Shown here: in pieces, positions 2,696 through 30,207 of the stretch | Numbering within the stretch: the stretch's first letter is position 1 | How the letters are laid out: the number at the start of each line of letters is the position of its first letter | NCBI GenBank assembly: GCA_016839745.1 | Contig: JAEOTS010000085.1 | Location: 1 to 30,330, forward strand | From: Promethearchaeota archaeon | GTDB lineage: Archaea; Asgardarchaeota; Lokiarchaeia; Sigyniarchaeales; SOKP01 | Direction of reading: 5' to 3' | Length of the DNA: 30,330 bases | Program-made: the position numbers and the translations under genes | The notes under the pieces: generated by a model | What the model was told of the DNA's origin: nothing | The model's input: only the letters and a program-made list of their open reading frames with translations | Databases searched by the model: none

Positions 2696-3328
2696 TTGAT
2701 TTTTAAAAGACTAGTAGTTGGTGCTTTAGCAACAAACTGCTACATTTTCGGCTCTAAAAAGACGAGTGAACTTGTTGTAATAGACCCCGGAGGGAACGCG
2801 GATACAATTATTAAATCTATAGAGGAATTAGGTGGGAAACCGGTAGCAGTTTTGTTAACTCATGGACACTTTGATCATACTACAAAAGTTAGCAGGATCT
2901 TACGACATTTTCAAATTCCACTGATGTATAGCAAAAAGGAATATGAATCTGGAACTTTCACCCATAAAGAGGCTAACAGATGGTTAGTAGAAGGGGATAT
3001 AATCAATGTTGGAGAAATCGTTCTTCACACTTTAGAAACACCCGGACATAGTCCTGGCTCTCTATGTTTTTATTCTGCTGATGTCAAAGAACTTAATGGA
3101 AAAAAAATTGACGGAATATTATTTTCGGGGGATTTAATATTCAGAGGAAGCGTAGGTAGATCTGATTTTCAAGGCGGTAATCAAAATCTTTTATTTTCAA
3201 GTATTAAAAACAAAATAATGAATAATAAAGAACTAACCGATAACTTTATCGTTTGCTCCGGACACATGGGCCTAACGACGATAGGGGAAGAAAGAGCACA
3301 CAATATGTTCAGAAAGTATTTCCTTTAG
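2696..3328 (+). CDS. Metallo-beta-lactamase-fold hydrolase (glyoxalase II/YcbL-like)
   Basis: TNCY, IDPG, THGHFDH, TPGHSPG, FSGD and GH motifs; TTG start with AGGAG upstream. Confidence 0.9.
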   Translation: MIFKRLVVGALATNCYIFGSKKTSELVVIDPGGNADTIIKSIEELGGKPVAVLLTHGHFDHTTKVSRILRHFQIPLMYSKKEYESGTFTHKEANRWLVEGDIINVGEIVLHTLETPGHSPGSLCFYSADVKELNGKKIDGILFSGDLIFRGSVGRSDFQGGNQNLLFSSIKNKIMNNKELTDNFIVCSGHMGLTTIGEERAHNMFRKYFL

Positions 3329-3406
3329 TTATTTAAGATATATCTATATGATAGTTGTTAAAAATAATAATGGAGCTACGTAAAGTTAAAATTAAAAAAG
3401 AGAGTC

Positions 3407-3691
3407 TTACTTTAGGATAATTAGAATAAGTTGTTCCTCTAAAGCAATCATGGTTTCTCCTTTTGATGTTTCTAAGCGTATAAATTTCAAGCCACCTTCT
3501 TTCAAAGCCTCGACTACTTGTTTACCTTTACCGATTAGCGACGTTACATAAGCAGAAATTTCTTCGCTAATTTCAATATCCATGTTGGAATCTATTGGTA
3601 AGCCACTTGAGTCGCAAATTATGACGCCACGAATACCTTCTCTTTCCTCAAAACGACGTATGATAGCCTTAACTTCTTGACGATTAATCAA
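3407..3691 (-). CDS. Roadblock/LC7 domain protein, dynein light chain roadblock-like
   Basis: 94 aa with GIRGVIICDSSGLPIDSNMD...LKFIRLETSKGETMIA pattern and no C-terminal helix; TTG start with GGTGA upstream. Confidence 0.85.
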   Translation of the reverse strand: MINRQEVKAIIRRFEEREGIRGVIICDSSGLPIDSNMDIEISEEISAYVTSLIGKGKQVVEALKEGGLKFIRLETSKGETMIALEEQLILIILK

Positions 3692-3964
3692 ATTCTAATT
3701 TTCACCATTTAAACGTTAAATAAATTAAATTTAATTTTAATGATATAATTATAATATATTCTGTATTTAAAAAATTATCATCTTCTTTTTAATAAGATAT
3801 AAATAATTTAAGGGTAATTTGGAAAGTATTATCTGGACTAATTATACTAAAATAAATTTAAATTACTTTAAAATATATATATATTTAAGAATTTATTTGT
3901 ACTAATTTAGATAAGCTAATTCAGAATTCAAACTGATAATAAAAAAATAAAGAGTCGCGTTACT

Positions 3965-4318
3965 ATGGTAGACAAAAAGGTTATTGAAAAGAAATTAGCA
4001 GAATTATTTGATATTGTTCCTGAAACTGAAGGATTAATTGCCTCTGATCTTGAAGGTAAAGTAATTGTAGGACAAACTTTAACAGAGATGGACCACAGTG
4101 GAATCGCGAAAAAATGCAGCGCAATAATAAAAGAATCTAATGATCTTGGCACCAATACAGGAAAAGGAGCATTGAAGTCTGCCACTATCGAATTAGAAAG
4201 CGGGTATGCGGTAATTGTTGCTTCCAATACTGGGATACTAATTGCTTTAGCAGGAATAGATGGGAAAGCATCTCTTTCTCTTCTTAAAAGAAATTTAGTT
4301 TCGATTTCAAACTTATAA
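3965..4318 (+). CDS. Roadblock/LC7 (MglB/LAMTOR2-like) domain protein
   Basis: 117 aa with GLIASDLEGKVI...LKSATIELESGYAVIV...ILIALA plus a C-terminal amphipathic helix. Confidence 0.75.
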   Translation: MVDKKVIEKKLAELFDIVPETEGLIASDLEGKVIVGQTLTEMDHSGIAKKCSAIIKESNDLGTNTGKGALKSATIELESGYAVIVASNTGILIALAGIDGKASLSLLKRNLVSISNL

Positions 4319-21222: not shown

Positions 21223-21960
21223 TTATATTTTTCCTACGACGCCAACATATATCGTAGTTTCATTCCTTCCATCGATTTCGAGAAATTGATTTAACTCATC
21301 GTCATATAACGCACCAATCGTACATGCTCCCAAACCAAGCGCTTCAGCAATCAGATAAAGATTCTGGCCAACATGTCCTGCGTCTAAATAGATATATCTA
21401 TAGCATCTCTGCAAGTATTTCCATTGAGAGCGTCCAATCATCGCAGTCCATATAAAATTTATTGCTGAGGTAAAAGCTATATTTTGATCAAGACACATTT
21501 TAGCAACTTTGTCTCGAAAATCTCCTTCTTTTAATAAGCTGAGCGAATGTTCTTGAATATCATAATGGTAGAGGCCTCTTTCTAAGCCTTGAACATTATT
21601 AATTGCGGGGTAAATTTCGATAGGATATAATCCTCCCGCAGAAGGCACCGTTCTAAATGCATATTGCGGAAAAATCCTGTTTAATCCAGACATACCAAAT
21701 AGAAACAAACTTAAATCCATCATTGACATAGGTTCAGTACTGAATTTCCTGGTTGAATGTCGATTTTTAATTACGCTCCAAAATTCTATAGCCGGATCAA
21801 AATTAGGTTCTGGTAGCTTTATTTTTTTGATAGCGTGTGAATATACTTTATAGGTTTTAGGTTTGTTTCCCCAATCTAGAACATGCCTTGGTAATTTATT
21901 TCTTATGTATTTAGACTTTTGCTGAAATTTATCACCATACTTTTCAAAATTATTTTCCAT
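21223..21960 (-). CDS. SagB/ThcOx family FMN-dependent dehydrogenase (nitroreductase fold)
   Basis: RHSTRKF, RTVPSAGGLYPIE, GLYHY, KY..R.YRYIYLDAGHVGQN and LGACTIGA motifs. Confidence 0.9.
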   Translation of the reverse strand: MENNFEKYGDKFQQKSKYIRNKLPRHVLDWGNKPKTYKVYSHAIKKIKLPEPNFDPAIEFWSVIKNRHSTRKFSTEPMSMMDLSLFLFGMSGLNRIFPQYAFRTVPSAGGLYPIEIYPAINNVQGLERGLYHYDIQEHSLSLLKEGDFRDKVAKMCLDQNIAFTSAINFIWTAMIGRSQWKYLQRCYRYIYLDAGHVGQNLYLIAEALGLGACTIGALYDDELNQFLEIDGRNETTIYVGVVGKI

Positions 21961-22855: not shown

Positions 22856-23092
22856 TTACTTTACAGCTTCAAAATACATGTGCCAGAGTTCATCATCGTC
22901 GAGAAAATCCGTCCCTAAGTGTTTGTGCTTAGTTTTTGCTAAATCACGTGGAACCGATTCAGACGCGGGCTTATAATCTGTTATTACTTTTAAGACGGTA
23001 CCTGGTCGCATTTTCATAAGTTGTTTCTTGGTTTTTAACGCAGGTACTGGACAAACTAAGCCACACACGTTTAATTCTTGGTCGAAATTCAT
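22856..23092 (-). CDS. tusA: TusA/SirA family sulfur carrier protein
   Basis: LNVCGLVCPVP (CPxP), GTVLKVITD; 78 aa; GAGGT SD; 39 nt downstream of the preceding gene. Confidence 0.88.
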   Translation of the reverse strand: MNFDQELNVCGLVCPVPALKTKKQLMKMRPGTVLKVITDYKPASESVPRDLAKTKHKHLGTDFLDDDELWHMYFEAVK

Positions 23093-23131: not shown

Positions 23132-25597
23132 TTAATCTTCACATACAGGTGAAAACATTGGCTCTTCTAAACCCGGTTCAATGTTCATCTCAATTTGATT
23201 CAATTGAACCAATCGTAAAGCTTCATATCGAACTTTTTTGGTCTCTAAATTTAAGGTTTTGGAAATGTTGCTAATCGTAGTCGGACCTTGAAGGGTTACG
23301 TAATCTAAGACTTGTTGTCGGGGAGTTCTTTCTAAGATTTCCATTTCTCTCTTTGATTTCAGATTGATTGCTTTCTTCAATTCGTCCTCATTAACGCTAC
23401 CCTCTTCAAATAATCCTTGAGTTATGGATCTTTCAATAATTTCTTTACCTCTTTCTGTCCACGCTACGACGGTTGTAAAGCCTTGCTTGGAACCAACCTC
23501 ACCAGCCGTGAAATCAGAATAAATTGCAGGAAAATCCTGACAATGTGAACAGTAATGATTGCAACTTAAACACCGTCTAGCTTCGGCTAACGCCATTTCT
23601 TCGGTAAACATTGCTTCGATTTCCTCAAAATTCCATTGGATGTCTTCAGTAGCTTCTTCTAAAGATTCTGGTTTTAGTGAATAATCCTTAGGAGTTCTTG
23701 TAATTCCTTCGAAAAACATTCTATTTTGCATATAACGCCCCTCTGATAAATCTTCTCCATTTAAATATCGATCTATAGAAATAGCCGCTTCTTTCCCGTG
23801 GGCTATTGCCGCAATTGCAACTGCTTTCGAGTGAGTAATGGTATCTCCACCAGCAAATACTCCCGGAATATTGGTTTCAAAAGTTATAGGATCAATCTCG
23901 ATTTTATTATGTTCTTTTTTGAGTTTATTACCCGTAGCAATGTCAATTAAATTAAAATCGACAGCTTGGCCAACGGCGATAACTATAGCATCTGCTTTGA
24001 TCTCATAGTCCGAACCCTCAACTTTATTGATTGGGCGTCTACCAGTATCGTCAGCTTCTCCCCTTGCGATTTTGTAGCTTTTTAGCACCAAATCATCGCC
24101 TCCCCCTTCAGAAATTTTTGATACAGAAGTTTCAAAATGATATTCCATGAATTTTAATTCTTCTTCAGGAATCTCACGCAGAACGAGTTCAAGATCTTTT
24201 TCATTCATAATGTCGACGAGATGGATTTTTTCTGCACCTAGCCTCAGAGCAGTCTGTGCAACATCAACTGCTACAGGGCCACCGCCTATTATTCCAATTG
24301 TTTTACCTTTAAACTCTTGCTGCTTCTGCCAATCTCGATATTTCCTATCGATAAGGAAATTAATAGCAACATGTACATTAGGGAGTTCTTCTCCTTCTAA
24401 GTGCAATGTCCGTGGTTTATACTGACCTGTTGCTATAAAAACGGCTTCATATCCATCATTTTTTAAGTCCTCAATCGTCATATCCGGTCCTAATGGTTTA
24501 TTAAATAGAATTTCCACGCCAGCTTTTTTGATCATCTCAACATCATAATCTAATACATAATCAGGTAACCGGAATTGAGGCACTCCGTATCGAAGCATAC
24601 CGCCAGTGTGATCAGTTTTTTCAAAAATTGTTGGAGTATAACCTTTAAGCGATAAAAAATATCCTGCTGTAAGACCTGCAGGTCCAGCGCCTATTATCGC
24701 AACTCTCTTACCTAATTTCTTCTTACTCTTCACACTCTTTTTTACATCTTGCTTAATTTCGTACTCTGTAATGAATTTTTTTAGTTCCCTGATAGCGACA
24801 GGATGATCCGAACCGATTAAAGTACACCCGTGTTCGCATTCGTGCGTACAAATTCTTCCACATATAGATGGTAGTGGATTGTCATTGCGAATCAAATCTA
24901 CAGCTTCCAGATATTTACCTTCTCGTATTAATGAGATGTATCCTTGAGCATTAACACCCGAAGGGCAACCTCCACAGCATGGCGAGCAGACCAAACCACG
25001 ATCTGTTTCTGCAGTTCTCATGCTTGAGTTACAGAATAGTCCTATTTTAAGGATCTCTCGGTTCATTTCTTCTCCCATTTCAGAAGCTCCTCTTATCTCA
25101 CATGGAACTCCAACGATGCCTACCGGTTCTAGGTTATCTCCAGTTACCTCTACTAGCTTCTCTAAGACCCCAGATCTTCCATATACGACTCCTGCTTTTT
25201 GAACTACATCTTCTGGATCGGTTACTCTGCTTGCTTTAGGCAAATCATCAACATTTTGGACCATCACGACTTCAGATAACTCCTTTTCCTTTAAGAGTTG
25301 TTTTGTAATTGTAGTAACAAATCCTCCGCTTGACGCTTTCTCCAATATTTCAGAGTCCTTACTTCTTAAGGAATAAATTCCTAAGGGTTGAAGCTCTTTA
25401 AATTTTTTCTGCAATACTTGAGGGCAGTTTTGGTAACATTTACCACAATCTTGTCCTTCTCTTTCAAGGATGCAATAATCTTTAAGGGTCGGTCGTAGCG
25501 TTTCCATTTCAATATGTTTGCAGTATCCCGCGCATAGACCACAACCTTGGCATAAGCCCGCCTCAATAATTTCACTTCTTAATAATTCGAAACTCAT
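23132..25597 (-). CDS. Fusion oxidoreductase: ferredoxin + FrhB/FdhB domain interrupted by a GltD/NfnB-like FAD/NAD(P)H module + C-terminal wHTH
   Basis: In order: CQGCGLC and CGKCYQNCP; SSGGFVT, VGVPCE, IGLFC (FrhB); CP...NPLPSICGRIC...C...C (Fer4_20); GAGPAG, GGGPVAVD, GVFAGGD, EARRCLSC; CSHCQDF...SDFTAGEVGS...TTVVAWTERG (FrhB C-terminus); helix-turn-helix tail. Confidence 0.85.
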   Translation of the reverse strand: MSFELLRSEIIEAGLCQGCGLCAGYCKHIEMETLRPTLKDYCILEREGQDCGKCYQNCPQVLQKKFKELQPLGIYSLRSKDSEILEKASSGGFVTTITKQLLKEKELSEVVMVQNVDDLPKASRVTDPEDVVQKAGVVYGRSGVLEKLVEVTGDNLEPVGIVGVPCEIRGASEMGEEMNREILKIGLFCNSSMRTAETDRGLVCSPCCGGCPSGVNAQGYISLIREGKYLEAVDLIRNDNPLPSICGRICTHECEHGCTLIGSDHPVAIRELKKFITEYEIKQDVKKSVKSKKKLGKRVAIIGAGPAGLTAGYFLSLKGYTPTIFEKTDHTGGMLRYGVPQFRLPDYVLDYDVEMIKKAGVEILFNKPLGPDMTIEDLKNDGYEAVFIATGQYKPRTLHLEGEELPNVHVAINFLIDRKYRDWQKQQEFKGKTIGIIGGGPVAVDVAQTALRLGAEKIHLVDIMNEKDLELVLREIPEEELKFMEYHFETSVSKISEGGGDDLVLKSYKIARGEADDTGRRPINKVEGSDYEIKADAIVIAVGQAVDFNLIDIATGNKLKKEHNKIEIDPITFETNIPGVFAGGDTITHSKAVAIAAIAHGKEAAISIDRYLNGEDLSEGRYMQNRMFFEGITRTPKDYSLKPESLEEATEDIQWNFEEIEAMFTEEMALAEARRCLSCNHYCSHCQDFPAIYSDFTAGEVGSKQGFTTVVAWTERGKEIIERSITQGLFEEGSVNEDELKKAINLKSKREMEILERTPRQQVLDYVTLQGPTTISNISKTLNLETKKVRYEALRLVQLNQIEMNIEPGLEEPMFSPVCED

Positions 25598-26835
25598 AAT
25601 AATTCCTCACTAATTTTAATTTTCGTTATAATACCCGTTTGATCAAGGGTATATTCTATCGAACCGTTTTTATAGGTTCCTTCCACCACATCAAAAACAT
25701 GGGCTTTATACTCGTTAAAGTCATCGTTAGGATCGATAATTGACTTGAATCCACCATAAAATACATTTGATAAGTTCATGTTACCAGCAATAAATCGAAT
25801 TTTATCTGTAAGTTCTCTATATTTTGGTGCATCTTCGCTCTCAATGGCTTTTAGTAAATCAGTTTCTAATTGTAAAAGCTCATTTCGGTATTTTTTTGTC
25901 TGTTCGCTTACTTCTATTTGGTTTGCTTTCTCGTAGGATTCAATGAATTTAAGCGTTAACGATATTGATTTAGCGCCACCTAAAAGCCCTGTTATCAAAG
26001 GAATCTCTTCGATCAGTCTACCAATAAAAACGTCTTCCAACAAAGATCCCGAAGAAGGGATTCTACCTTTTGGAAAACCTGAAGTAGGTAATGTAAATCT
26101 GAAAAAATTTCCGACCACATCAGGTAAACTATTGGTTAGATCGTCGTCCTCGTCTCCTAATTTGTCAGTTGCTCCCTTAACTGAATGCTCCGTTGCAATC
26201 TCTATGTTCCCAGCTAAGGTTCCGAACATTGCTAACATGCGAATTCCAGAACGATCTATGCTTGGTTTACACCCTCTACAAGGAGTATTGTAATCAATAC
26301 ATTTTTCTTTACATTCAGTAGCAGTAAAACCACTACATAGAAATCCTAAGTCGTTAAAACAAGTTTCAGAATCTTCTAATTCAATTTGTCTATTGATTGA
26401 TTCTAAATAGTCACAAGTTGCCTTTCTGGAACAAACCTGACATAAACTTTTTAATTTCGGAACTCCTGTTCCGTCAATAGTTAGTTTTAATTCTTCAATT
26501 TCGCCTAAACATCCATGAACATTTTTTGAACCTTCAATTAAGCTTGATAAAGGTGTAACATCGTGACCTTTTTGATTTGCTAAAGCAAATACTCCCCCAG
26601 TAGCCGTACAATCTCCATAGGCAATAATCTTTTTTGAATTGTTCTTTATGCGTTCAATGTTCTCTAAGTCGTTAGGGAGTAAATAGCCAGTAATAACTGA
26701 TACATCGACATTTTCTCCTTTCCAGCTCTTTGGATCGGAAACAAATTCTACTTTGTATTTAACCCCTTCTTTTAATAACAGGGATTCATTGAAGCACTTT
26801 TTACATCCATTAAATTGGAATACTTTAACATCCAT
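25594..26835 (-). CDS. mvhG: MvhG-like hydrogenase small (Fe-S) subunit with a C-terminal extension resembling a degenerate large-subunit fragment
   Basis: GCKKC, AYGDCTATGG, HGC, CQVC...CFNDLGFLC...C...C...PCRGC and DVVGNFFRFTL motifs, plus about 150 extra Cys-free residues. Confidence 0.75.
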   Translation of the reverse strand: MDVKVFQFNGCKKCFNESLLLKEGVKYKVEFVSDPKSWKGENVDVSVITGYLLPNDLENIERIKNNSKKIIAYGDCTATGGVFALANQKGHDVTPLSSLIEGSKNVHGCLGEIEELKLTIDGTGVPKLKSLCQVCSRKATCDYLESINRQIELEDSETCFNDLGFLCSGFTATECKEKCIDYNTPCRGCKPSIDRSGIRMLAMFGTLAGNIEIATEHSVKGATDKLGDEDDDLTNSLPDVVGNFFRFTLPTSGFPKGRIPSSGSLLEDVFIGRLIEEIPLITGLLGGAKSISLTLKFIESYEKANQIEVSEQTKKYRNELLQLETDLLKAIESEDAPKYRELTDKIRFIAGNMNLSNVFYGGFKSIIDPNDDFNEYKAHVFDVVEGTYKNGSIEYTLDQTGIITKIKISEELL

Positions 26836-27277
26836 CTTTTATCGTCCCCTTTTCAGTAATTGCAGTTGTTAATCGATCTATAATATCTTCGAAATCGCCT
26901 ACAGCGGTCTCACCTTCCGCAGCTCTCGAGGTATATTGGTTTACAAATTGGTCGCTGTAACCCAACTCTTTAAAGACTTTTTTCATCAATTTTATTCTAT
27001 GCATCGAAATTACATTACCATTAAAAAAATGACATGCACCTAAGCAACATCCGACGCAAGCAACAGCGTCCGCTCCGTTAGTTAACGCTTCCATGATCTG
27101 AATTGGTCCAACTTGACCTGTGCATTGTACTCTAATTATTCTTATCGCAGCGTCGTACGCCATTCTAGCTACGCCCGCAGTGTTTGCTGAACCTTGACCA
27201 CACTCGTTACACATAAAAACTACAATATTATTAATCCTTTCCTGAACATATTCGTCAGGTACTTCGCAATTGTTCAT
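26825..27277 (-). CDS. mvhD: MvhD/FlpD [2Fe-2S] subunit
   Basis: FMCNEC, IRIIRVQCTG and GADAVACVGCCLGACHF..GN motifs. ATG at 27277 overlaps the hdrA stop (ATGA), so it is preferred over the track start at 27283. Confidence 0.88.
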   Translation of the reverse strand: MNNCEVPDEYVQERINNIVVFMCNECGQGSANTAGVARMAYDAAIRIIRVQCTGQVGPIQIMEALTNGADAVACVGCCLGACHFFNGNVISMHRIKLMKKVFKELGYSDQFVNQYTSRAAEGETAVGDFEDIIDRLTTAITEKGTIKDGC

Positions 27278-29289
27278 TCGCAAACAGCACCCCCACCAGA
27301 TACAGCAGTTATTTCCTCATATATTTGATCATCTGTGAAATTAATCAATTGAATTGCTTTCGTTGGACAACTTGGCATACACATACCACACGATCTACAC
27401 GCAATTTCGTTAACAGTAGGTCTTCCATTTTCGTCAATGTCGATTGCTGCTGGAGCGCAAATAGTTTTACACATTCCACAATTAACGCATAAATCGTAAT
27501 CTATGGATGGTACCAACATTTCTTTTTCTATGTAGCCTTTTACTAAAGGTGCAGCAGCTAACGCAGCGGCACTTCCCGCATGAGCTACAGTTTCTGATAT
27601 GTCTTTTGGTCCTTGAATCGCTCCCGCTAAGAAAATTCCTCCTTTACTACTCAATGTAGGGTTCATCTTAATGTGAAATTCTTTTAAGAATCCTTCCTTG
27701 GAACGTAAAACTTTAAGTTTAGAACCAAGAGGCCCTATTCCTTCAGGGGGAACCATCGCTGCTGACAATACAACCATATCAGCATTTAATTGTAAAGGAG
27801 TCATGCTTAGTGTGTCTTCTACAATAACTTTAAGCTCTCCACTTATTGGGTCTTTAACAATTTCTGAAGGTCTTCCTCGGATAAATCGAACTCCAACTTC
27901 TTGAGCAGATTGATACATTTCTTCAAAATTTAATCCTGGAGTTCTTATATCTATATAACAAATCGTCACATCGGTGTCAGGATACATTTCTTTTACAATT
28001 CGAGCATTTTTTATCGCGAATTTACAGCATACACCAGTACAATATTTATTTCCAACCTGCTCGTTTCTACTACCCACGCATTGAATCATTACAATGCTCT
28101 TAGGTAGTTTACCATCAGATGGTCTTAATACTTCAGAATTGGTAAGGGAGGTAGGTGATAACATTCTTTCCAATTTTAATTGAGTAATAACATCTTCGTA
28201 TCCCTCTTGTCCATAATGATAAGGCTCAATTTCCGTAGGATCATATTCACTATATCCCGCAGCAACTATTATTGAGCCAACTTTAACCGTCTTAGTTTCA
28301 GGTTGCATCGAAAAATCAACCGCTTGGACTGGGCATATGTTAATGCATGTATTACATTCAATACAAGCCTTCTTGTCCCTCACGAATGTTGCGGGAATTG
28401 CTTGTGGATAGGCTTTATAAATAGCGTTCCTCATAGACATTCCTTTATCCCATTCACTGGGAACCTCTACTGGACAGTGTAAAGAGCACTCACCACATGA
28501 AGTACAATTATCCTTCACATACCGAGGCTTAATTTCGATTTGAACTTCAAAATTTCCTAAGGATCCCTCAATGCTTTTAATTTGAGCATTTGTATAAAGC
28601 TCAATTAATGGGTGATTCGCTACTCCGTTAGTTAACGGTGAAATTGAACATTGTGGACACTCTAATGTTGGAAAAGTTTTATTTAATTGCGTCATATGCC
28701 CACCAATTGTCGAATTCTTCTCTACTAAAAACACTGGTATTCCTAATTCCGCCAAATCATTTGAAGCTCTAAGACCCGCGATACCCGCACCAATAACTAA
28801 TGCTGCTTTAGTGGTCGAAATTCGTCTCGTTTCCACATCTTCAAGTTTTCGAGCTCGATTTACTCCAGCCTCGACTAATCGAAGTGCTTTTGCAGTTGCT
28901 TTTTCCTCGTCTTTTTTATGAACCCAACTGCAGTATTCTCGAACGTTGACTTGTTGGTGTTTGTGTTTATTAATACCTTCTTCGGCAATTGCTCTCGCAA
29001 ATGTCTTTCCGTGTTGATTTTTAGAACAACTTGCAACTACGGTTCTATTAACCCCTAACTCTTTAATTGAATCCTTTACCATTTGAACGCCGGGTTTTGA
29101 ACACATAAACATGTAATGTTCTGCTTTTACAACATTTGGTAAATTTTTTGCGTAATCTGCTACTTTTGCGACGTCCACAGTTCCAGCAATGTTGTGACCG
29201 CAATGACATACAAAAACCCCAATTCTGGGTTCTTCAGATTCGCTCGATTCAACTTTACTTTTTTCCATTTTTTCTTCTTTAACGGCCAT
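27274..29289 (-). CDS. hdrA: Heterodisulfide reductase subunit A (FAD, Fe-S)
   Basis: RIGVFVCHCGHNIAG, VNVREYCSWVH, GAGIAG, KTFPTLECPQC, inserted ferredoxin, IQCVGSR...YCTGVCC, GPKDI and C-terminal ferredoxin. Confidence 0.96.
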   Translation of the reverse strand: MAVKEEKMEKSKVESSESEEPRIGVFVCHCGHNIAGTVDVAKVADYAKNLPNVVKAEHYMFMCSKPGVQMVKDSIKELGVNRTVVASCSKNQHGKTFARAIAEEGINKHKHQQVNVREYCSWVHKKDEEKATAKALRLVEAGVNRARKLEDVETRRISTTKAALVIGAGIAGLRASNDLAELGIPVFLVEKNSTIGGHMTQLNKTFPTLECPQCSISPLTNGVANHPLIELYTNAQIKSIEGSLGNFEVQIEIKPRYVKDNCTSCGECSLHCPVEVPSEWDKGMSMRNAIYKAYPQAIPATFVRDKKACIECNTCINICPVQAVDFSMQPETKTVKVGSIIVAAGYSEYDPTEIEPYHYGQEGYEDVITQLKLERMLSPTSLTNSEVLRPSDGKLPKSIVMIQCVGSRNEQVGNKYCTGVCCKFAIKNARIVKEMYPDTDVTICYIDIRTPGLNFEEMYQSAQEVGVRFIRGRPSEIVKDPISGELKVIVEDTLSMTPLQLNADMVVLSAAMVPPEGIGPLGSKLKVLRSKEGFLKEFHIKMNPTLSSKGGIFLAGAIQGPKDISETVAHAGSAAALAAAPLVKGYIEKEMLVPSIDYDLCVNCGMCKTICAPAAIDIDENGRPTVNEIACRSCGMCMPSCPTKAIQLINFTDDQIYEEITAVSGGGAVCE

Positions 29290-30207
29290 CTATATTGCCT
29301 CCTCTTCTTTTTTAACTTCTTCGCCACCAAATATGTAATCCTTTCCCATCATTTGATATTGAAGACCAACAAATTCTTGGTCCATCCCCATACAATATGC
29401 AACAAGTTGGGAAAGATGAATTACTGGATAATCGTAATTACAGCTTTTATTCTTGTTTAAATAATCTTGTCCCGTTTCAAATTGTAAGTGACAGAAAGGA
29501 CAAATATCTAAAATAAAGTCTGGTTCTACCTCGTCAATATTTTTCATCTTTTCTCCAAAAATTGTCATGCTCGTATCGCCGGAATACGCTTTTACGCCCC
29601 CACCAGCACCGCAACATGTAAGTTGTTCTTTGAATCTGACTGATTCCACTCCTAAAACTTCAATAAATTCTTCAACAATCGTCGGTCCTTCTGAACTCTC
29701 AATCTCTCGAATTCTTGTTGGTTTTAGAAAATGACAACCATAATGTACAGCCGCACGCGCGTTTAATTTTCTTGTAATTACTTCTTCTATACCCCATGGA
29801 CCTATTTCGTATCCTAACACTTCGGCTACATGACGCACATCAATCGTACCTTGAAACTCGTAATCTCCGAGCAGTTTTAATTTTTCATTTACTAATTCTC
29901 GTTGTTCTTCATTCTCTTTTAAATGTTTATTAATCTCTTGGAGTGTTCCAAAGCACCCATTACAAACTGTAAGGATATCGGCATCAAGCTTTTCAGCTAT
30001 ACACAAGTTTCTGGCACCCGCCACCATCCAATCAACCTTGTTAAAGGATCGAAAGACCCCTGGAGCTGGACAACAACTGGCGCGTTCCATGTCTAAGATC
30101 TCATACCCTAGTTTTTTCATTACAAACTTCGTTGCTTTTTCAATCGCAGGATATCTATTCGGCATAAGACATCCCAGAAAAAACGAAAATGTTTGTTCTT
30201 TTGCCAT
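29290..30207 (-). CDS. hdrB: Heterodisulfide reductase subunit B (two CCG domains)
   Basis: FFLGC, CCPAPG, TVCNGC, HYGCH, CCGAGGG and CPFC motifs. Confidence 0.96.
   Translation of the reverse strand: MAKEQTFSFFLGCLMPNRYPAIEKATKFVMKKLGYEILDMERASCCPAPGVFRSFNKVDWMVAGARNLCIAEKLDADILTVCNGCFGTLQEINKHLKENEEQRELVNEKLKLLGDYEFQGTIDVRHVAEVLGYEIGPWGIEEVITRKLNARAAVHYGCHFLKPTRIREIESSEGPTIVEEFIEVLGVESVRFKEQLTCCGAGGGVKAYSGDTSMTIFGEKMKNIDEVEPDFILDICPFCHLQFETGQDYLNKNKSCNYDYPVIHLSQLVAYCMGMDQEFVGLQYQMMGKDYIFGGEEVKKEEEAI

Follow-up and report, generated by a model that had tools for sequence, protein, structure and literature searches.

What does an FrhB-type protein do when a second flavoprotein is lodged at the very site that normally walls the access channel of coenzyme F420? 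This question is raised by a stretch of DNA of 30,330 nucleotides (the window) from Promethearchaeota archaeon (Archaea; Asgardarchaeota; Lokiarchaeia; Sigyniarchaeales; SOKP01; NCBI GenBank assembly GCA_016839745.1, contig JAEOTS010000085.1), in which a frame without internal stop at 23132-25597 (-) encodes a protein of 821 residues. A prediction made from the sequence letters (the original prediction) placed a GltD/NfnB-type flavoprotein between the second and third cluster-ligating cysteines of FrhB, and both the domain map and the matches in the PDB agree with it; the two cysteines that it named, Cys189 (nt 25031-25033) and Cys683 (nt 23549-23551), stand exactly at those coordinates. We lean, with a little more confidence than doubt, towards the view that this protein is the electron-entry subunit of a hydrogenase-less Asgard HdrABC-MvhD complex.

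Domain Organization of the 821-Residue Protein

The regions of the protein, from its N-terminus to its C-terminus, are the following (strand in brackets):

25388..25597 (-): N-terminal ferredoxin domain, aa 1-70, from alignment to the ferredoxin domains of Fsr and 8rja_E/8riu_B
25001..25387 (-): first FrhB half, aa 71-199, with SSGGFVT, AGVVYGRS, C166 in VPCE and C189 in GLFC; PF04422, PF04432 model 3-48 and invariant alignment columns
24713..25000 (-): start of the insert, an NfnL-type helical Fe-S domain, aa 200-295; PF14691 (94 bits) and StnC/NfnA/NfnB alignments
23753..24712 (-): flavin adenine dinucleotide (FAD) and nicotinamide adenine dinucleotide (NAD(H)) Rossmann domains of the insert, aa 296-615, with GAGPAG, GGGPVA and FAGGD; PF07992 and structural matches to NfnL/NfnA/StnC
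23552..23752 (-): linker, then the permuted NfnL N-terminal helix, aa 616-682 (N656-F-E-E-I ... E-A-R-R-C676-L-S-C679), with C676 and C679 near-invariant; NfnB 4ylf_B alignment
23330..23551 (-): second FrhB half, aa 683-756, with C683, C686 and the SDFTAGEVGS loop; alignments to 3zfs_C, 8rja_E, 8riu_B, 7np8_A and 9tn7_A, and PF04432 model 64-148
23135..23329 (-): C-terminal tail, aa 757-821; secondary structure of the model and alignments of the long, scar and mini forms described below

In Pfam, FrhB_FdhB_N (PF04422) is matched at aa 75-146 (53.3 bits, cut-off 22), FrhB_FdhB_C (PF04432) in two stretches (62.5 bits), Fer4_20 (PF14691) at aa 190-283 (94.2 bits) and Pyr_redox_2 (PF07992) at aa 298-601 (94.5 bits), all well over their cut-offs. 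The split FrhB_FdhB_C matches that were expected around Fer4_20 and Pyr_redox_2 are thus present; in a genome-wide scan the first covers aa 158-199 (model positions 3-48) and the second aa 651-736 (model positions 64-148), with 44 + 24 bits. Sequence searches of the PDB divide the protein in the same places. Residues 3-173 resemble Fsr (7np8_A) and the F420-reductase subunits 8rja_E and 8riu_B, which belong to the CO dehydrogenase and the formylmethanofuran dehydrogenase of Ethanoperedens, residues 200-681 resemble NfnA, StnC and NfnB (E 1e-92 to 1e-66) and also NfnL, GltD and dihydropyrimidine dehydrogenase (DPD), and residues 683-755 resemble residues 192-259 of FrhB 3zfs_C, beginning at its CxxC motif.

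The ferredoxin domain, of a kind described in PMC11493965 and PMC10229431, contains eight cysteines (16, 19, 22, 26, 42, 51, 54 and 58), invariant in long, scar and mini forms, which would bind two [4Fe-4S] clusters. The C-terminal tail (aa 757-821) has no Pfam match. It is kept across the three forms and is modelled as three helices and a beta hairpin, winged-helix-like, at a predicted local distance difference test score (pLDDT) of about 79-93; it may be a docking or dimerisation element. Some homologues carry the label 'predicted transcriptional regulator' at JGI.

The AlphaFold2 model, computed from a 76-sequence alignment, has a pLDDT of 85 and a predicted template modelling score of 0.77, and its confidence is weak only in the junction linkers (aa 191-195 and 632-652). 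Taken together, the FrhB halves superimpose on 8riu_B (Z 28.9, root-mean-square deviation 3.2, 278 aligned residues, model range 1-755) and, with Z 27.5, on 8rja_E. As anticipated, then, the prediction brings the two halves back into a single FrhB fold that surrounds the insert; the segment that follows aa 683 matches 3zfs_C and is predicted to fold together with the first half. The insert (model residues 189-683) superimposes on residues 97-570 of NfnA from the Caldicellulosiruptor NfnABC complex (9bov_A; Z 42.2, 451 residues), on StnC (8oh5_C) with Z 41.2, and on NfnL (5jfc_L) and NfnB (4ylf_B) with Z about 36, within an overall range of Z 35-42.

Could this arrangement be an artefact, either an assembly chimera or a fused pseudogene? 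The chance is negligible. More than 100 full-length homologues of 817-825 aa, sharing 70-97% identity and the same junctions, are present in NCBI, JGI, ENA and Logan assemblies (source names are those of metagenome-assembled genomes only), and an uninterrupted match to residues 1-820 occurs in about 30 species genomes of the phylum, so that the chimeric assembly allowed for by the original prediction does not hold. This number of independent homologues, the open frame, the Shine-Dalgarno-like GAGGA 5' of the gene, the ATGA overlap with the preceding gene and the invariance of the ligand cysteines that flank the junctions together rule out the artefact.

The Nested Cassette Is a Circular Permutant of NfnL

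The insert comprises 483 residues (aa 200-682) and is set between the FrhB ligands C189 and C683. In the linear order of NfnL, GltD and DPD, a helix with the pattern NF..EA.RCL.C stands at the N-terminus of the module, whereas here it stands after the Rossmann body, where aa 656-681 (N-F-E-E-I ... E-A-R-R-C-L-S-C) align with residues 9-47 of Thermotoga NfnB (4ylf_B), its N-terminal helix. Comparison with a 908-aa protein of the same genome, in which FrhB and NfnL stand in tandem, shows the same displacement: aa 197-612 of the 821-aa protein (P0001) correspond to residues 479-901 of the tandem protein, and aa 656-681 to residues 463-488. Since the NfnL N-terminal helix is found after the Rossmann body, the insert is circularly permuted, of the NfnA/StnC kind. 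A plain, non-permuted GltD insertion is ruled out by the position of the helix and by the comparison with the tandem protein; the original prediction, right about the type of module (GltD/NfnB), needs changing on this point. At the N-terminal junction, R200-G-L-V-C204 is a degenerate copy of RCLxC, and StnC and NfnA are alike in this.

Cysteines 207, 211, 246, 250, 254 and 258 of the insert are conserved, and C207, C211, C250, C254, C258, C676 and C679 recur in 26 unrelated proteins that host the cassette (C679 in 25 of them). By homology to DPD, we take C676, C679, C207 and C258 to be the ligands of an outer cassette cluster, and C211, C250, C254 and C246 those of a cluster proximal to the FAD. 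The cassette can be nested because its two ends meet at one cluster. As C679 and C683 are four residues apart, its outer cluster must, on this ligand assignment, adjoin the FrhB cluster.

The cassette is promiscuous: its other hosts include HdrA (P0324), HdrC/HdrB fusions (P0193), a NuoE/NuoG-like protein and plain ferredoxins, and FrhB is a new one. The closest relatives of the insert (53-55% identity) are two HdrC::NfnL::HdrB fusions of the same genome, of 919 and 920 aa (L019 373-3129, contig C145; L020 1524-4283, contig C185), in which the permuted NfnL cassette lies between an HdrC-like ferredoxin and HdrB-like CCG domains.

The FrhB Host and Coenzyme F420

In Methanothermobacter, the [4Fe-4S] cluster of FrhB is bound by Cys104, 134, 192 and 195 (PMC3591093), and the ligand pattern of the FrhB-type cluster in Fsr is PCX40CX54CX2C (PMC10229431). 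The equivalents in the host part of the 821-aa protein are C166, C189, C683 and C686, which do not vary in any of the 46 homologues compared, whether of the long, the scar or the mini form. C683 and C686 align with Cys192 and Cys195 of 3zfs_C and C166 with the PC cysteine of Fsr, 8rja_E and 8riu_B; C189 was assigned through the GLFC motif common to the FrhB paralogues of the genome itself.

Between the second and third ligands of FrhB there are approximately 55 residues that form a helix and a three-stranded sheet walling the F420 access channel; this flap leaves a gap of about 5 Å, thought to be the route of F420 to the FAD, and has a conserved IGKGK turn (PMC3591093, PMC3930138). The flap with its KGK-type turn is absent in the 821-aa protein, which has 483 foreign residues (aa 200-682) instead. 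The flap is still there in seven canonical FrhB paralogues encoded by this genome, with turns like DINKGKF in most of them, and eight FrhB paralogues reach 129-144 bits on PF04432, versus 44 + 24 bits for the 821-aa protein. Moreover, the SDFTAGEVGS loop carries Glu700 at a position that is Ser or Cys in all five of the aligned F420-dependent PDB homologues; some FrhB paralogues of the genome vary at this position too. The missing flap, the weak and split PF04432 match and Glu700 make the use of F420 by this protein unlikely. In the alignment of homologues, the FrhB FAD loops are intact, S89, G91, G92, G136, Y139 and IGLFC all being invariant, and from the conservation of these loops the protein would remain a two-flavin protein. 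A swap from F420 to NAD(H) is plausible on these sequence features.

The original prediction offered as its alternative a two-flavin protein working between F420 and NAD(P); the conserved FAD loops uphold its two flavins, and the evidence just given speaks against its F420. In this dual-coenzyme alternative, the FrhB FAD would still exchange hydride with F420, and the protein would be an F420H2/NAD(P)(H) transhydrogenase or a two-input donor to Hdr. The invariance of the SSGG FAD loop, the Tyr139 loop and IGLFC fits it, the FrhB cluster would connect both flavins, and the F420 biosynthesis genes CofG/CofH and CofD are encoded in the genome, F420 being probably available to the organism. We nevertheless hold it to be rather unlikely, given the loss of the channel helix, the three-stranded sheet and the KGK-type turn (PMC3591093, PMC3930138), the replacement of a small Ser or Cys by Glu700 (with the variation among paralogues already mentioned), and the presence of the separate 908-aa tandem protein, which has the flap and an NADPH-type motif and is a better fit for a transhydrogenase role.

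The gene of the 908-aa protein lies at 4164-6887 of L019 (contig C145 of G000) and encodes a ferredoxin domain, a canonical FrhB and a linear NfnL end to end, with a complete PF04432 match, the flap, and the YRR motif of NADPH-dependent enzymes. A gene for an NfnS/PyrK-like protein of 294 aa lies directly upstream (3278-4159). From its sequence, the 908-aa protein is a candidate F420-linked Nfn-type enzyme, a tandem counterpart of the nested protein.

The CofG/CofH pair appears twice in the genome, on contigs C104 (1874-3818) and C106 (96-2040) of G000, both of them short, and the two copies score alike; the pair may have been duplicated, or the second copy may reflect the contamination of the bin, estimated at 5.8%.

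Coenzyme of the Cassette

In the NADPH-dependent proteins NfnA, NfnB, NfnL and GltD, the second strand of the NAD(P) fold is followed by the motif Y-R-R-(S/T)-x-x-E-M-P, which is present in each of the five PDB homologues compared. At this site the 821-aa protein has L-V-D462-I-M-N-E-K-D. The V-D-I of this segment is found in 33 of the 35 full-length forms of the alignment; P0189 has V-E-I, and P0190, the most divergent full-length homologue (46% identity), retains YRR. In the HdrC::NfnL::HdrB fusions, YRR is replaced by F-V-D-I-L. An acidic residue at the position equivalent to YRR is the usual mark of NADH preference in Rossmann folds. The missing YRR makes NADPH unlikely as the coenzyme, and the motif suggests NADH instead. 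The dinucleotide motifs of the NAD(P)H-oxidising module that had been predicted are in place, with NADH rather than NADPH as the suggested substrate.

The Hdr-Type Operon

The gene of the 821-aa protein is the fifth of a tight operon with the order HdrB, HdrA, MvhD, MvhG-like, 821-aa protein, TusA, and HdrC presumably lies beyond the contig end. The other genes of this operon are:

29290..30207 (-): HdrB homologue, 305 aa, two CCG domains; PF02754 (124 bits, two stretches)
27274..29289 (-): HdrA homologue, 671 aa; FAD and ferredoxin domain matches, gene order in relatives
26825..27283 (-): MvhD homologue, 152 aa; PF02662 (107 bits)
25594..26835 (-): MvhG-like homologue of the hydrogenase small subunit, 413 aa; PF01058 and a match to 5odc_E
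22856..23092 (-): TusA sulfur-carrier gene, the last of the operon; PF01206 (67 bits)

The operon suggests that the protein would belong to an Hdr complex and not be a free-standing enzyme. The TGA stop of the MvhG-like gene and the ATG start of the FrhB-type gene share bases in the sequence ATGA, an overlap that suggests translational coupling of both genes. Residues 133-295 of MvhG (5odc_E) correspond to aa 93-255 of the MvhG-like protein, and about 160 C-terminal residues of the latter lie outside this similarity. No gene for a hydrogenase large subunit is present in the operon. The order HdrC-HdrB-HdrA-MvhD-MvhG-like-FrhB-TusA is kept around three relatives of the FrhB-type gene, namely P0190 (a divergent long form), P0146 (a scar form of 380 aa) and P0182 (a mini form of 353 aa).

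A partner of the NfnS/PyrK-like or GltB type is found neither in this operon nor in the three related ones, which bears on the idea that the cassette FAD bifurcates as in NfnSL and provides the complex with a second bifurcation site. The cassette is homologous to NfnL, whose FAD does bifurcate (5jfc_L and 4ylf_B, Z about 36), and the same idea has been raised for the HdrA::NfnB of ANME-1, a group of anaerobic methanotrophic archaea (PMC9012536). Yet the operon lacks an NfnS-like partner, and in the closest structural relative, the nested domain of NfnA, the FAD is a plain entry point for NADPH (PMC11829005). We consider bifurcation at the cassette very improbable.

The sulfur-related genes of these loci raise a different alternative, in which the complex would run in the opposite direction: a thiol or carrier-bound sulfur of the TusA/DsrE type would be oxidised, possibly together with reduced ferredoxin, and the cassette would reduce NAD+. 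TusA and DsrE accompany Hdr-like systems that oxidise sulfur, and NfnL-type modules are reversible. Downstream of the gene there is always TusA, and relatives have DsrE/DsrE/DsrH beside the operon; in the P0182 locus, for instance, these three genes come after TusA. However, the HdrA/MvhD/MvhG-like set is of the bifurcating type of methanogens, whose known complexes run from the donor to the disulfide (PMC12350162), and no gene for a lipoate-binding protein was seen in the related loci that were read. The opposite direction is thus unlikely in our view, although it deserves some weight.

Other features of the surroundings may be recorded here. DsrE, DsrE and DsrH adjoin TusA in Thor- and Hod-type loci (L014 9078-10413; L015 872-2208), and L015 has a second HdrC/HdrB pair after TusA. 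A 245-aa gene of the nitroreductase family lies a few genes downstream of the operon, at 21223-21960 (-) in the window, 12117-12854 in L015 and 9744-10481 in L016; its placement here and in two Hod-type loci may be conserved synteny.

Natural Variants and Distribution

Long forms (46-97% identity) are common in the family to which the window belongs and sporadic elsewhere in the phylum. A search for orthologues covered five more genomes of the phylum, of which three are closed. G213, a closed genome of 4.4 Mb, has no match to the 821-aa protein, G259, G211 and G038 have distant FrhB paralogues only (27-30% identity), and G295 has a long form.

Two shorter kinds of homologue are known besides the long form. 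Scar forms (366-399 aa) have lost the Rossmann body and keep R-C-G-C-T-L-I-G and the cassette end E..C..C...C..C, with four conserved cysteines, from which comes the idea that the scar may retain one [4Fe-4S] cluster; in the AlphaFold2 model of the scar form P0137, the scar (aa 191-263) has a pLDDT of 30-37 and is uninformative on folding as a cluster-binding domain. In mini forms the distance from GLFC to CxHC is only about 17-20 residues, and flap and scar are both missing. The flap is absent from long, scar and mini forms alike. In G314, a genome of the same genus as the window, a scar-form gene (403-aa frame, C203 1955-3151) and a long-form gene (838-aa frame, C176 534-2996) are both present; the two would be paralogues unless they stem from a mixed bin.

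In a tree built solely from the FrhB parts, with the canonical paralogues as the root (a quick search, with long outgroup branches), the mini form is sister to long and scar forms, and scar forms are nested inside long forms with a Shimodaira-Hasegawa-like approximate likelihood ratio support of 98. Because of this nesting, scar forms are secondary deletions. The mini form P0182 occupies the same operon position without flap and without insert, and it is sister to the insert-bearing clade, so that the loss of the flap is separable from the insertion; whether the loss or the insertion came first, three events are needed on the tree. The original prediction saw in the insert a replacement of the F420-channel subdomain that was at the same time a cofactor swap. 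The insert does occupy the site of the flap, but in view of P0182, which has neither, replacement and swap need not have been one event.

Comparison with Known Systems

The operon has a parallel in the Elp-Hdr complex of methanogens, which contains, in place of the Mvh hydrogenase, a subunit of the FrhB family, an FdhA scaffold that is catalytically dead and a homologue of MvhD, and in which HdrA receives electrons from F420H2 through them (PMC12350162). ElpB and FdhB of Elp-Hdr and Fdh-Hdr (PDB 8rvu, 7bkb; PMC12350162) resemble the 821-aa protein in being FrhB-family flavoproteins encoded with an MvhD homologue and HdrABC, the sequence similarity to FdhB being weak (E 3e-6). They differ in that they keep the F420 flap and oxidise F420H2, while here an NAD(H) flavoprotein is nested in place of the flap; the scaffold is FdhA-like there and MvhG-like here.

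With respect to the insert, the same permuted cassette is nested in a host Fe-S protein in NfnA and StnC of the Bfu-type NfnABC and StnABC complexes (PDB 9bov, 9n5u, 8oh5; PMC11829005), at Z 41-42 and 35-37% identity over about 450 aa, and again with the helical Fe-S domain at its start and the NF..EA.RCL.C helix at its end. In NfnABC, NADPH is oxidised at the FAD of the nested NfnL-like domain, from which electrons enter a series of clusters, with no bifurcation at that point (PMC11829005). The host there is NuoG/Fdh-like, with NuoF/NuoE-like partners, whereas here it is FrhB with Hdr/Mvh neighbours; NADPH (YRR) is used there and V-D-I is found here, and the lysine ligand of NfnA is Cys246 in the 821-aa protein. 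Cassettes nested in proteins of the Hdr system are also known, since HdrA9-11 of ANME-1 carry an NfnB-like insertion (PMC9012536); this HdrA and the Asgard HdrC::NfnL::HdrB share the cassette with the 821-aa protein and differ from it in host and insertion site.

The best matches of the host part (Z 24-29) are Fsr (7np8) and, from Ethanoperedens, the CODH zeta subunit and FwdI (8riu_B, 8rja_E), which also combine a ferredoxin domain and an FrhB fold. In contrast to the 821-aa protein, they have the flap and are F420-dependent, and their extra domains are appended or are separate subunits, none being nested. No published description of an FrhB with a nested NfnL-type flavoprotein was found in a literature coverage that mostly excludes subscription journals; the nearest published case is the NfnB-like insertion in HdrA of ANME-1 (PMC9012536).

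FlxABCD-HdrABC of sulfate reducers offers an analogous way of supplying Hdr. There, an NADH-oxidising module is connected via an MvhD-like protein to HdrABC, with a sulfur carrier as presumed acceptor. It differs in lacking an FrhB fold and in binding NADH through FlxA, a subunit unrelated to the cassette.

Proposed Role in an Hdr Complex

As an electron-entry subunit, the 821-aa protein would hold two [4Fe-4S] clusters in its ferredoxin domain, a [4Fe-4S] cluster and an FAD in its FrhB fold, and an FAD, an NAD(H) site and two [4Fe-4S] clusters in its cassette. NADH would reduce the cassette FAD, and the electrons would travel on via both clusters of the cassette to that of FrhB. Ferredoxin would be reduced by HdrA, as would, by way of HdrBC, a substrate of the disulfide or persulfide type, for which TusA is a possible carrier. 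In this way, the NAD(H) cassette probably gives a hydrogenase-less Hdr complex a direct port for pyridine nucleotides. We infer the order of electron transfer, the preference for NADH over NADPH, the loss of F420 use, the direction of flow and the substrate of Hdr.

Several points weigh against this role. The complex is read from gene order alone, and NADH preference is based on one motif and a general rule for Rossmann folds. The conserved FrhB FAD loops point to a second flavin that has no role in the electron-entry model, and the genome makes F420. Finally, the operon is the same around mini and scar forms, which lack the Rossmann body, and the complex would therefore have another electron entry or exit.

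One further proposal gives the second flavin a function. The FrhB cluster would be a three-way junction joining the NADH-fed cassette, an active FrhB flavin with an opened pocket and the wire to HdrA, the new substrate of the flavin being, for instance, a carrier protein or F420 bound in a different way. This proposal is speculative and we regard it as improbable; if true, it would mean an undescribed, hydrogen-independent bifurcating system of Asgard archaea that couples NADH to carrier-bound sulfur and ferredoxin, and long, scar and mini variants would switch its inputs.

Concluding Remarks

Independently of its role, the 821-aa protein is a case of natural protein engineering by nesting, in which a permuted flavoprotein is placed between two ligands of the iron-sulfur cluster of its host. 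Its insert-free and scarred relatives, which are found in the same operon context, are potential natural controls.

Asgard archaea are the closest known relatives of eukaryotes, and syntrophy models of how eukaryotes arose turn on the way in which these archaea balance NADH, ferredoxin and hydrogen. They encode HdrABC-MvhD of the methanogen type yet make no methane, and we know of neither an electron donor nor a substrate for their complex. A conserved NAD(H) cassette in its donor arm leads to a hypothesis that can be tested by assay, namely that the Asgard HdrABC-MvhD complex would be driven by NADH, and not by H2 or F420H2.

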